Shown here one piece after another: positions 20,062 through 23,909 of a DNA stretch of 64,000 nt. The notes beneath the pieces are model-generated. The model saw only the letters and a list, made by a program, of their open reading frames with translations. It did no database searches and had not been told where the DNA came from. The stretch lies in the sequence record NC_054911.1; one strand, given 5' to 3'. Both the position numbers and the translations under genes were made by a program. Numbering within the stretch: the stretch's first letter is position 1; every line of letters begins with the position of its first letter. The stretch comes from Escherichia phage ECO4.

Positions 20062-20888
20062 AATAATATCCAATTTTTCCAAGCTTCATCAGTAGAATTA
20101 CAGCGTTTTAGTATAAGATGTCTAGAAACTTTTATGGCATTTGAGCACTTTTTAATTGAATCATATTTAATACCGTCAACTGAAACGGTTTTGCTAATTG
20201 GAGAAATTTTTCCATACATTGGATTTTTTGAACCAACTTGAAGTCCTTTTAAAGCTTTTGAAAGCTTTTGTCTAGATTCCAATGACATGGGAGAATTCTT
20301 TTTACCTTCAATAATTCGCTTGCGATGAAGTTCGCGTTCTTCTTCACTCAAAGAATTGTAATATTTTTTAACACCGTTTGATATAGATAATTTATCTTTC
20401 TCAGACCGCTCTCCAGCTAATTTACTTCTAACATCTTTTCGCTTCATAGCTATGCTTACGGCTTTATTTAAATTTGCTTGATGCTCTGGCGTACGTTTAT
20501 ATTTCTTTAAAGCACGTGAAATAGCTATTTTAGTTTCTTCTGTTCTCTTTTTACCTTTATTTGCTAAACTATTTTTGCGGCGATGTTCAAGTGTCTGTTC
20601 ATAGGCAGTTCCACCTTTTCCACCAGGTTTAATATTATATGTATTTTCTTTTAGACAATACTCTTCGGTTACAAGTTCAGCTTCTTTATCATACATCTGT
20701 TTTTCATTATCAAAAACATGTAAAATTTCTTTATTAAAATTTTTTCTACCATATTTTAATAAAGCGGCACGAATCAATGTTCCTGACCCCATATAACCGT
20801 CATTTATGTTATCGGTGCTATGCGCACCGATATATTCCTTTGAATTAATTATATTTGTTATTTTATAAATTATATAATACCTATGCAT
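20058..20888 (-). CDS. GIY-YIG family homing endonuclease (free-standing)
   Basis: N-terminus YYIIYKITNIINSKEYIGAHS = GIY-(10 aa)-YIG; lysine-rich C-terminal DNA-binding-like region; inserted between nrdD stop and nrdG start with overlaps at both ends. Confidence 0.75.
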   Translation of the reverse strand: MHRYYIIYKITNIINSKEYIGAHSTDNINDGYMGSGTLIRAALLKYGRKNFNKEILHVFDNEKQMYDKEAELVTEEYCLKENTYNIKPGGKGGTAYEQTLEHRRKNSLANKGKKRTEETKIAISRALKKYKRTPEHQANLNKAVSIAMKRKDVRSKLAGERSEKDKLSISNGVKKYYNSLSEEERELHRKRIIEGKKNSPMSLESRQKLSKALKGLQVGSKNPMYGKISPISKTVSVDGIKYDSIKKCSNAIKVSRHLILKRCNSTDEAWKNWILL

Positions 20889-22698
20889 GTTTTACTCGTT
20901 TTACCATTTCTTTCATTTTACCTAAATTCCATGGAACAACGCTAGGAGTTCCAAGATATCCGCATGTTCTTCTTATTGTATTCATCTTTTTAGGATCAGT
21001 TTCTCCACAAATAGAACAAATAAATCCGCTTTCAGTAGGAGTCATTTCATGGGTGCTTCCGCATGTAAAACATTTATCTACTGGCATATTAACACCAAAA
21101 TAATCTAAATGTTGTGCAGCATAATCCCATACGGCCTCAAGACCCTTTAAGTTATTTTTCATATCAGGAAGTTCAACATAAGAAATGTGACCACCTGTCG
21201 CAATGAAATGATATGGTGCTTCTCGAGAAATCTTTTCAAACGGAGTAATATTTTCTTCTACTGAAACATGGAAACTGTTAGTGTACCAGCCTTTATCAGT
21301 AACATCCTTTACACTTCCATATTTTTCTGTATCAAGTTTACAGAAGCGATAACAAAGGTTTTCAGCAGGAGTCGAATATAAACTAAAAGCAAATCCAGTT
21401 CTTTCAGTCCACTGTTTAAGATGAGCATTCATTTTAGTTAAAATTTCTTGCCCGATATCACGTCCAACAAGAATATTCAATTCATGAATACCAATGTATC
21501 CTAGGGACACTGAACTTCTACCGTTTTTAAATAACTCAATTATGTCGTCATCAGGTTTAAGACGAACCCCGAATGCACCTTCTTGGTAAAGAATAGGAGC
21601 AACAGTCGCTTTAACTCCTTTTAAGGAACTAATTCTACACATCAAAGCTTCAAAACACAAATCCATACGTTCATTGAATAATTCAACAAATTTCTGTTCG
21701 TTAAATTGTGTTCCAATATAAGAATCTAATGCAATGCGAGGAAGATTCAGTGTTACAACACCAAGATTATTACGTCCATCAAGAATTTCATTACCAGTCG
21801 AATCTTTCCATACGCTCAAGAAACTACGGCAACCCATTGGAGAAACAGGAATAGATGAACCGGTGATAGCTTTATTATTCTTAACTGAAATAATATCAGG
21901 ATACATCCTTTTGCTTGCACACTCTAGAGCAAGCTGCTTAATATCATAGTTCGGATCGTCTTTATAAAGATTAACGCCTTCTTCAACGAACATAACAAGT
22001 TTAGGAAAAATAGGAGTTATCCCATCACGACCAAGACCTTTAATACGATTTTTCAGAATTGCTTTCTGAATCATTCGTTCAGTCCAGTCAGTTCCCGTAC
22101 CAAATGTAATTGTTACAAAGGGAGTCTGTCCGTTTGAACTAAAGAGAGTATTTACTTCATATTCATAAGCTTGGAATGCATCGTATACGTCTTTTTCTGT
22201 TTTAGATTGGGCATAATTCAGTGCATCGGCGATTTGCCATTTTTCTGCGTCCTCGATATGTTTTGCATAGGTGCGTTTAACATAAGGAGAAAGTACTTTA
22301 TCTACATTAGCAAAAGTCGTTCCGCCATATTGATGGGAAGCAACTTGCGCAGTAATTTGTGCCATAATTGCAGTAGCAACGCCAATTGATTTAGGAGTTT
22401 CAATCTGTGCATTACCAAGCTTAAATCCGTTTTCAAGCATTCCTTTTAAATCTACTAAACAACAATTAGTAAATGGAAGAGCAGGGGAATAATCAATATC
22501 ATGGAAATGAATAATTCCGCTTTCATGCGCTTTCATAATAAAAGACGGGACCATATTTTTGGCAATGTGTTTAGACACAATACCAGCCATAAGGTCCCGT
22601 TGAGTTGGAAAAACACGAGAATCTTTATTAGCATTCTCGTTTAAAAGGTCTTTATTAGTTTTATGAATCAATCCTTCAATTTCTTTTTCAATTGTCAT
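20881..22698 (-). CDS. nrdD: anaerobic ribonucleoside-triphosphate reductase (uninterrupted, no intron)
   Basis: 605 aa continuous ORF; C-terminal zinc-ribbon CFTCGSTHEMTPTESGFICSICG and glycyl radical region. Confidence 0.93.
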   Translation of the reverse strand: MTIEKEIEGLIHKTNKDLLNENANKDSRVFPTQRDLMAGIVSKHIAKNMVPSFIMKAHESGIIHFHDIDYSPALPFTNCCLVDLKGMLENGFKLGNAQIETPKSIGVATAIMAQITAQVASHQYGGTTFANVDKVLSPYVKRTYAKHIEDAEKWQIADALNYAQSKTEKDVYDAFQAYEYEVNTLFSSNGQTPFVTITFGTGTDWTERMIQKAILKNRIKGLGRDGITPIFPKLVMFVEEGVNLYKDDPNYDIKQLALECASKRMYPDIISVKNNKAITGSSIPVSPMGCRSFLSVWKDSTGNEILDGRNNLGVVTLNLPRIALDSYIGTQFNEQKFVELFNERMDLCFEALMCRISSLKGVKATVAPILYQEGAFGVRLKPDDDIIELFKNGRSSVSLGYIGIHELNILVGRDIGQEILTKMNAHLKQWTERTGFAFSLYSTPAENLCYRFCKLDTEKYGSVKDVTDKGWYTNSFHVSVEENITPFEKISREAPYHFIATGGHISYVELPDMKNNLKGLEAVWDYAAQHLDYFGVNMPVDKCFTCGSTHEMTPTESGFICSICGETDPKKMNTIRRTCGYLGTPSVVPWNLGKMKEMVKRVKHA

Positions 22699-23168
22699 TT
22701 TAAACTCTTTCTAAGCTGCTTCTTAAATGAAGCTATTAATTGTGTTTTGGTGTCAAATTCATTATATTCAAATCCTCTTTGAAGCATCTCAGCCATCATT
22801 TCCTCTTTTCCTAAACGAGAAAATTCCTTTGATTTATCTCCAACGAAGTTAGGGTGAATATTATTTTGGGTGTAATCGGATTTTAAATAAGTAAGTAAAT
22901 TTTCTAACCATTCAAGATAATCAACACCCTGTCCCTTTAATCCAGAACGATTAAATTTATGCTTCATTTGACCTTCTGCAGCATTGCAGAGATTACAGAG
23001 CAATCCACGTACCTTTCCTGCTTTTGGTCCATTTAATTCATGGTCATGGTCAAGGTGATTAGCTTGAACATCAGGATTTAATTCTCGTTGGCAAATTAAG
23101 CATTTACCGTTTTGTGCATTATAAAATTTCTGTTTTTCTTCTTTATATAATTTGCCAGTCAATAACAT
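22695..23168 (-). CDS. 49: endonuclease VII (Holliday junction resolvase)
   Basis: 157 aa MLLTGKLYKEEKQKFYNAQNGKCLICQREL..., zinc-binding cysteines; matches recalled T4 gp49. Confidence 0.93.
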   Translation of the reverse strand: MLLTGKLYKEEKQKFYNAQNGKCLICQRELNPDVQANHLDHDHELNGPKAGKVRGLLCNLCNAAEGQMKHKFNRSGLKGQGVDYLEWLENLLTYLKSDYTQNNIHPNFVGDKSKEFSRLGKEEMMAEMLQRGFEYNEFDTKTQLIASFKKQLRKSLK

Positions 23169-23204
23169 AATAAAACCCTTACCTTAAATAGATAAGGGTA
23201 TTTA

Positions 23205-23480
23205 TTATTTTCAAGTATTGTAAAACATTCGATGCAATCGCTTATATTGTCGAATCATCTTTTTAGTAGGACGAGAATAGGTTCCTACGCAAGTGGTCAT
23301 ATGAGGGTCCGTAGAATGTCCTTTAATAAAAAGTTTCCAAACCTTACCGCCATTTAACTTTTCAGTATAAACCAATTCGGTTTTCATTAAAATGTCCTGT
23401 CAGAAAAAGAATTTTGAGTTTTTTCAAGTATTGTAAAACATTTGATTCAATCGCTTATATTGCCGAATCTTTTGGTCAGA
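23205..23480. repeat. direct repeat pair (about 50 bp, roughly 92 percent identical, 216 bp apart) duplicating the 3' end of pin
   Basis: ttttcaagtattgtaaaacatt(c/t)gat(g/t)caatcgcttatattg(t/c)cgaatc at 23207 and 23423; a second short repeat gtcagaaaaagaa(t/a)tttgagttt flanks copy B. Confidence 0.6.
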
Positions 23481-23909
23481 AAAAGAAATTTGAGTTTCAA
23501 GCCATTCAATGTACTCTGCGGCAGCTTGCATTAAATTTCCTTCATAACCATCGTTATTTTCTTGTGCAGCTAATTTAGCTAATGCGTATGAAATACGTTC
23601 ACCTTGAAAATCGGCTTTAGGCTTCTGAACAACTTGATTAGTTCGCTCTACAACTTCTTCAATTTCGCCATTTTCGACTGATTCAGTATTCCACAAGCAC
23701 CAATACGTAATTGGCTTATCATAGATGTTAATAATCTTTCCGTCGGAAAGTTCAATTTCAATAATTCCAGTATCAGGCTCTATATCATCTTCACATTCTT
23801 TTGCAAGTTCACGAACTTTAAAGACAGTACCTGCACTAAGTTCCGGCCAGTAATTACATAGCCCTGTATCAACACGATTAATTCTAAACCACTTATCTAC
23901 TGTAATCAT
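23424..23909 (-). CDS. pin: Pin-like protein (inhibitor of host Lon protease)
   Basis: 161 aa from MITVDKWFRINRVDTGLCNYW; position next to gene 49; track start is TTG artefact. Confidence 0.7.
   Translation of the reverse strand: MITVDKWFRINRVDTGLCNYWPELSAGTVFKVRELAKECEDDIEPDTGIIEIELSDGKIINIYDKPITYWCLWNTESVENGEIEEVVERTNQVVQKPKADFQGERISYALAKLAAQENNDGYEGNLMQAAAEYIEWLETQISFSDQKIRQYKRLNQMFYNT

Follow-up and report, generated by a model that had tools for sequence, protein, structure and literature searches.

The window, the whole stretch of 64,000 nucleotides of Escherichia phage ECO4 that was analysed (NC_054911.1), belongs to a T-even phage of the genus Tequatrovirus, and its best matches in the phage collection are ~97-98% identical. 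The region considered here carries nrdD, gene 49, a 58-codon open reading frame, pin and then 49.1, all on the minus strand. Gene 49 (22695-23168, minus) is an ORF of 157 aa that is annotated as endonuclease VII in all related records; it is the downstream neighbour and forms the fixed right-hand boundary of the variable segment. The 58-aa ORF (23211-23387, minus) is an intact gene of the family DUF7279, with an AGGA Shine-Dalgarno sequence 7 nt ahead of its ATG. It is followed in window coordinates by pin (23424-23909, minus; ATG at 23909), which encodes a chimeric PinA of 161 aa, the inhibitor of the host Lon protease. Inside 49.1, upstream of pin, there is a near-consensus sigma-70-type promoter (23978-23950, minus; TTTACA, a 17-nt spacer and TATAAT; 11/12), and the NBG2 record has a promoter annotated at the equivalent place. 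On the far side of gene 49, nrdD (20881-22698, minus) is one uninterrupted ORF of 605 aa. The nrdD of T4 is split by a group I intron with I-TevII, so this phage has the intron-less allele.

A ten-pair hairpin (ACCCTTATC TATTT AAGGTAAGGGT, then a run of Ts) lies between gene 49 and the 58-aa ORF (23175-23199, minus) and has an RNA fold z-score of -3.2. It contains the Shine-Dalgarno sequence of gene 49, is invariant in the four haplotypes described below, and carries a terminator annotation in the records of NBG2, SP1 and D5505. In T4 the hairpin is described as regulating translation of gene 49 (Barth et al. 1988, as cited in PMC2988022).

The first-pass annotation of this DNA had reported a direct repeat of about 50 bp with three mismatches, a second, shorter repeat bracketing one of its copies, and an ORF of about 58 codons whose C-terminal peptide nearly equals that of pin. 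Each of these observations holds, and the ORF and both peptides read exactly as they had been given. The 49-nt string GATTCGACAATATAAGCGATTGCATCGAATGTTTTACAATACTTGAAAA at 23208-23256 recurs with 3 mismatches at 23421-23469, so that the locus carries direct repeats of 49-50 nt. None of 100 dinucleotide-preserving shuffles of the window matched the string (chance expectation 0), and the pair is the only one of its kind within the 64 kb. In a repeat search the pair lengthens to 63 nt (86% identity), its copies lying 213 nt apart. Copy A (23208-23256, minus), the native copy as argued below, covers DUF7279 codons 45-58 together with the stop codon and AAA, and encodes the end of the 58-aa protein (...KMIRQYKRLHRMFYNT, then stop). 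Its small hairpin (ATTCGA...TCGAAT) has no conserved counterpart in copy B, which encodes the pin C-terminus (...QKIRQYKRLNQMFYNT, then stop). The segment in copy B that is regarded below as a captured tail (23427-23471, minus) consists of pin codons 147-161 (KIRQYKRLNQMFYNT); its homologue in the DUF7279 gene is formed by codons 44-58 (23214-23258).

The shorter repeat, 23 nt long (GTCAGAAAAAGAA(T/A)TTTGAGTTT), occurs at 23399-23421 and 23475-23497 with 1 mismatch and a spacing of 76 nt, and thus flanks copy B. The copy at 23475-23497 (minus), the first in the direction of transcription, carries the pin codons for ETQISFSD, with its first base (23497) in the preceding Leu codon; these codons specify the last native pin residues ahead of the fusion point. 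The second copy is included in a non-coding remnant, 33 nt in length, of the 3' end of an SP1-type pin (23388-23420; minus strand AACTCAAAATTCTTTTTCTGACAGGACATTTTA).

The 58-aa ORF is an ordinary full-length member of DUF7279 and differs in no respect from that family. It matches Pfam PF23945 over residues 7-56 with 62.7 bits (E=3e-17), well above the curated cut-off of 24.5, and phrog_3272 over residues 1-58 of a 59-position profile (E=3.4e-34). The predicted protein is strongly basic (pI 10.2, net charge ~+9) and is at least 99% identical across 109 phage records. In the AlphaFold2 model (pLDDT 81.5) three beta-strands are followed by a single C-terminal helix at residues 42-56. A fold search of this model against the PDB gave no match better than E=0.27, and one against BFVD matched nothing but uncharacterised proteins from T4-like phages, with that of Salmonella phage S16 at the top (E=1e-4). 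No paper in the searched literature mentions DUF7279, and no further paralogue was found in a search of the window besides the 58-aa ORF and the pin tail.

Homologues of the DUF7279 gene adjoin gene 49 in Tequatrovirus, Mosigvirus, Dhakavirus and Gaprivervirus, with identities of 78% in Dhakavirus JS10, 81% in Gaprivervirus RZ, 55-58% in Mosigvirus SF and ATK47 and 41% in JM17 and F2. All homologues examined end in the motif RPTK..R..KR.HR.FY. Of the 17 invariant columns of the family, 11 fall in residues 39-56, and every one of these (R39, P40, T41, K42, R46, K49, R50, H52, R53, F55 and Y56) is present in the window ORF. The repeated segment is the most conserved part of DUF7279, its basic C-terminal helix, and the 58-aa ORF is an intact conserved gene, not a remnant. 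It should be annotated as such, and several deposited records omit it or merge it with pin. The ORF is present yet unannotated in OL631480, MT968995, OP137232 and KT184309, among others, and in APTC-EC-2A it is labelled 'host protease inhibitor'. At one locus (L020, 911-1677; also L028; IMG/VR UViG_3300030021_000012) two DUF7279 paralogues flank pin. The upstream one is of a 56-aa type; the downstream one, of a 59-aa type, is split in two by a frameshift and probably represents a pseudogene.

Pin itself divides into a family core and a tail. The protein matches Pfam Inhibitor_I24 (PF10465) over residues 4-141 with 162 bits (cut-off 27), which places it securely in that family, and phrog_2167 covers its residues 1-146 of 146. 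The last 15 residues lie outside both pin profiles. Residues 147-161 instead match positions 44-58 of phrog_3272, and a DUF7279 profile built in this study also matches the tail of the pin ORF (E=5e-4). An AlphaFold2 model of the 161-aa protein, computed from an alignment of 27 sequences, has a mean pLDDT of 62 and values of ~48 in the tail, which is given no confident packing. The window pin is 96% identical to T4 PinA and of the same length. T4 PinA is the reference Lon inhibitor in biochemical work, and its residues 147-161 are likewise outside the family; natural pins of 148 aa and of 136-144 aa do without them. As far as PMC8835725 reports the literature, T4 PinA is the only pin known to inhibit Lon (Hilliard et al. 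1998 and Skorupski et al. 1988, cited there). The papers mentioning PinA in the searched literature contain nothing on its C-terminus.

More distant pins define what the original C-terminus looked like. Those of Mosigvirus end in ...YLERRLS, and pins at 40-45% identity end in ...FSDRGF, ...FSSKSF or ...FNAKSF, in each case directly before the stop codon. In the alignment of 27 pins, those at 40-55% identity are all without the tail. Genes of 57-62 aa that correspond to the C-terminal module of pin, found in Dhakavirus and in another T4-like genus (locus L029), end in ...FSDEAF or ...FSDRQF. Because these outgroup pins and modules share the ending and do not have the tail, ...SDRxF before the stop is the ancient pin C-terminus, and the layout termed class B below, in which it is preserved, is ancestral. 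Diversity is also higher among the pins of 148 aa (13 clusters at 84-94% identity) than among those of 161 aa (6 clusters at 90% or more). In JS10-type Dhakavirus phages (L005, 729-1386; L011-L019) pin exists only as a C-terminal module of 57 aa (...WLEAQLRFSDEAF, then stop). A separate ORF of 89-100 aa follows it, then the DUF7279 gene, and in some phages that ORF resembles the N-terminal module of pin (WPEL..., WCFW). Pin is a two-module protein, and its modules occur as separate genes (phrog_10788 and phrog_9092).

The ownership of the tail can be read from these comparisons. The DUF7279 profiles include it and the pin profiles do not; homologues that do not adjoin a pin 3' end keep it, both in JM17, which has no pin at all, and in F2, where the homologue lies upstream of pin; and the outgroup pins do not have it. 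For these reasons the copy in DUF7279 is native, and the copy in pin is, on the sequences compared, derived and captured. The first-pass annotation had described a partial duplication of the 3' end of pin; the polarity is the reverse.

The substitutions in the two tails fit the same assignment. The 12 DUF7279 tails compared fall into four nucleotide haplotypes that encode one peptide, all 3 variable codon sites being synonymous. The 13 pin tails have 1 synonymous and 5 nonsynonymous variable sites, and 3 of these 5 fall at positions that are invariant in the family, R46, H52 and R53. R46Q is found in T4, H52N in RB14 and the window, and R53Q in nearly all pin tails; the window pin carries N for H52 and Q for R53. 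The difference between the tails in synonymous and nonsynonymous sites has a Fisher exact p=0.048 on 9 variable sites, and the pattern, small as the numbers are, fits a native, constrained copy in DUF7279 and a captured, relaxed copy in pin. The pin tails of T4 and RB14 have 4 nonsynonymous differences, and the intermediates in ES12 and D5505 bridge these one step at a time. Two fusion events rather than one behind the T4 and RB14 tails would, strictly, still be conceivable.

The region between pin and gene 49 occurs in public genomes in four layouts, which emerged when it was compared by BLAST with ~50,000 phage records and representatives were then aligned. The counts that follow reflect coverage thresholds rather than record-by-record inspection. 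Scans of IMG/VR gave 12 and 8 loci, and haplotype frequencies were for that reason taken from the BLAST coverage classes. In class A, the arrangement of the window, pin161 is followed by a 36-nt spacer, the 58-aa ORF and gene 49; it is represented by the window, ZN18, D5505, G9062 and ES12. A junction-specific query of 118 nt (23388-23505) is covered to at least 80% in 111 records, and the arrangement of the window is therefore common. In class B (NBG2, SP1, PP01, EcNP1, ESh16; ~74 records, obtained as 185 for A and B together minus 111) the stop codon of pin148 overlaps the start of the ORF (TAATG), and gene 49 follows. Its pin148 ends in ...SFSDRAF, or in SP1 in ...SDRTF, and the same layout is found in Dhakavirus and Gaprivervirus. 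Class C, with pin161 directly before gene 49, includes T4, T6, RB14 and RB59 and numbers ~250 records (436 for A, B and C minus 185). Class D, with pin148 and no ORF, is exemplified by HY03 and comprises ~70 records, as estimated from evenly spaced rows of the BLAST matches. HY03 has a class B genome of the PP01/ESh16 type from which the ORF was lost at a TTTTA(C)AAT microhomology. The searched literature contains no description of a 49-pin polymorphism.

At three further loci large ORFs resembling free-standing homing endonucleases are present (L017, 1716-2402; L024 and L027, 2198-2884). At the first of these the ORF directly follows the DUF7279 gene, where gene 49 would be expected, and at the other two it follows gene 49, where nrdD would be expected. 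One of the ORFs starts with ...HIGFVYVITFEDGKKYVGAKK, the other with ...PPYYYIGSKTN.

The origin of the window arrangement is recorded in its junction. The remnant at 23388-23420 corresponds letter for letter to the coding 3' end of the pin148 of SP1 (...ETQNSFSDRTF, then stop; MT682709, class B), and the Shine-Dalgarno sequence of the DUF7279 gene is likewise inherited from SP1-type sequence. On the other side, the tail and stop codon of the window pin (…CAAAAGATTCGG…AATCAAATG…ACTTGAAAA) are identical to those of RB14 (class C). The two meet in a run of As (23419-23424; minus strand CTTGAAAA/AACTCAAAA, between window positions 23420 and 23421), with sequence of RB14/T4 type to the left of the junction and of SP1 type to the right. 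The identical junction is present in five of the five class A genomes examined, namely the window, ZN18, D5505, G9062 and ES12. This shared junction, together with DUF7279 proteins at least 99% identical in 109 records, points to a single, fairly recent event at the origin of class A. The alignment of the 49-pin region with T4 and its relatives, which the first-pass annotation had called for, thus supports the scar of illegitimate recombination that it had suspected, a T4/RB14-type pin end joined at the A-run to SP1-type sequence. The remnant of a replaced gene that it had offered in the same breath does not agree with an ORF that is intact and conserved.

Taken together, the repeat is very probably the footprint of two successive rearrangements, in which pin first captured its tail from DUF7279 and the donor gene was later reacquired. 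The ancestral layout would be that of class B, a pin148 ending in ...SFSDRAF whose stop codon overlapped the start of the small basic DUF7279 gene (TAATG). An in-frame deletion of 138 bp would then have removed the last two codons of pin, its stop codon and codons 1-43 of DUF7279. Codon 146 of pin would thereby have been joined to DUF7279 codons 44-58, giving the 161-aa PinA of T4, T6 and RB14 and the layout of class C. Finally, one illegitimate join in the A-run, with the end of a class C pin (...ACTTGAAAA) on one side and interior sequence of an SP1-type class B pin (AACTCAAAATTC...) on the other, would have placed the DUF7279 gene behind the chimeric pin as in class A. A single join of this kind between class C and class B would account for both repeats, the 50-nt repeat as the captured plus the native tail and the 23-nt repeat as the ETQISFSD codons plus the SP1-type copy. 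Both tail copies are predicted to be translated, copy A as the C-terminal helix of DUF7279 and copy B as an extension appended to PinA.

Homologous recombination between the two tail copies would be expected to delete a 213-bp cassette with the DUF7279 gene and to restore a junction of the T4 type. A natural deletion product of this description exists. The class C phage fPS-65 has a hybrid pin tail: the 5' half agrees with a class A pin tail, and the 3' half (CATCGAATG…CTTAAAAATAAT), with the TAA stop codon and the following AAAAT, agrees with the DUF7279 tail of D5505, G9062 and ES12. By its sequence, fPS-65 is the expected product of recombination across the repeat with loss of the cassette.

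The order of capture and reacquisition is one that we infer, and the steps could be arranged differently. A tandem duplication of the stretch that begins at the 23-nt repeat and closes with the tail may have come first, in an SP1-type class B genome and at the same A-run junction, with an in-frame deletion in the upstream copy then giving class A and recombination between the tails giving class C later. The genome of fPS-65 proves that repeat recombination does turn class A into class C, and in the class A phages G9062 and ES12 the 23-nt repeat is of the SP1-type CTCAAAATTC variant in both its copies, as this order of events would have it. However, this order takes at least as many events, and it derives class C, the commonest and most diverse tailed form (~250 records), from class A, which the at least 99% identity of DUF7279 in 109 records suggests to be young. 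Furthermore, the pin and tail upstream of the junction in the window are RB14/T4-like and the sequence downstream is SP1-like, just as a cross between class C and class B predicts. A duplication at the outset is improbable, although it is the best of the alternatives.

A good deal less likely still, and very unlikely in absolute terms, is an origin of the tail within pin, with a foreign small ORF inserted at the 3' end of the gene so that ~50 bp were duplicated, or with the ORF as what is left of a replaced gene. Within the window alone this is the natural reading, since one copy is carried by the well-known, longer pin and the other by a short unannotated ORF, and T4 lacks the small ORF but has a tailed pin. 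However, the tail is the most conserved part of DUF7279, it is present in homologues such as those of JM17 and F2 that do not adjoin the 3' end of pin, and purifying selection acts on the ORF, which is intact. Moreover, all pins outside the close T4 clade are without the tail, which the pin profiles exclude. The ending ...SDRAF is common to pins at 40% identity and to the C-terminal-module genes of other T4-like genera, and an insertion could not have created by coincidence an ending that is shared with such distant pins and modules. An assembly or sequencing artefact, raised in the first-pass annotation as what could overturn its reading, would require the repeat to have been collapsed or mis-joined in one genome and is practically negligible, as 111 independently sequenced phage genomes cover the junction query with the same arrangement, those examined have the same junction, and the reading frames of both genes are intact.

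Capture from DUF7279 with subsequent reacquisition of the donor is not the only case of fusion between these two genes. In P0038 (L041, 1501-1926; a single Logan contig) a Mosigvirus-type pin is joined to the last nine codons of a downstream DUF7279 paralogue (…LERR/FHRDFYNVY, then stop). The join lies at a AGACGTTT/AAGCGTTT microhomology, and this capture is independent of the T4-type one. In P0037 (L042 and L043, 1501-2076), found in two independent metagenome assemblies, loss of the stop codon of an upstream paralogue has produced a read-through fusion of 191 aa that contains full-length DUF7279 and pin.

It is tempting to see DUF7279 and PinA as functional partners, with the C-terminal helix (R.HR.FY) as an interaction module and T4 PinA as a 'Rosetta-stone' fusion that has internalised it, but this is a speculative reading that we consider doubtful. 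The helix may, for example, bind the acidic body of pin, or bind Lon like a C-terminal degron. The start/stop overlap (TAATG) of the ancestral layout, the opposite charges (~-16.5 for pin residues 1-146, ~+8.7 for DUF7279), the three independent fusions (the T4-type capture, P0038 and P0037) and the open frame of the tail in all tailed pins seen would agree with such a partnership. However, each gene is found without the other (JM17, HY03, L029), the nonsynonymous changes in the pin tails fall at family-invariant positions, and AlphaFold2 gives the tail no confident packing (pLDDT ~48). Any function of the tail within PinA would be conjectural.

Several features of the locus resemble rearrangements that are familiar from T-even phages. 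Microhomology-mediated deletions and duplications in T4 are part of classical rII genetics, and turnover by insertion and deletion is known from the hyperplastic regions of T4-like genomes. As there, homology at the junctions is short or absent (the A-run of the window, TTTTA(C)AAT in HY03, AGACGTTT/AAGCGTTT in L041), small non-essential genes are gained and lost between core genes, and close relatives display many haplotypes. Unlike those cases, however, the in-frame deletion would have made a chimeric protein, which is now the form in the model phage T4, and the donor gene would later have been restored beside the chimera, so that donor and captured copies lie 213 bp apart.

A likeness also exists to the PeSL (promoter-early stem-loop) cassettes of T4-type phages, for which modular shuffling and the formation of mini-circles have been described (Arbiol et al. 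2010, PMC2839356; Comeau et al. 2014, PMC4122927). Here, too, a small dispensable ORF in a variable region lies between direct repeats of ~50 bp and is lost when these recombine, as in fPS-65, and in principle a circle of 213 bp could be released. In contrast to PeSL, the repeat is coding and unique to its locus, with two copies in the 64-kb window. There is no sigma-70-like promoter within 23208-23256 or 23421-23469, the nearest site on the minus strand being that at 23978-23950, and no stem-loop terminator within the repeat, the only hairpin being that at 23175-23199, outside it. Given its coding location, its two copies and the lack of both promoter and stem-loop, the repeat was rejected as a PeSL cassette. 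A mobile element or homing-endonuclease cassette finds no more support, as the 213-bp unit has DUF7279 for its sole ORF and gave no match to a nuclease or transposase family. Nor is the duplication of the target-site type, because it is explained by the homology between the tail and its own donor gene.

Turnover of this kind is ordinary in the variable regions of T-even phages, and it is here unusually completely documented. The locus provides a compact and traceable case in which a chimeric gene would have arisen by in-frame deletion, its donor would have been reacquired, and the donor may be lost repeatedly through a 50-bp repeat. For work on the inhibitor, it means that T4 PinA is a chimera in which another gene recently supplied the last 15 residues. 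The family core consists of residues 1-146, and the short pins found in nature are ready-made truncation variants for mapping the surface that binds Lon.
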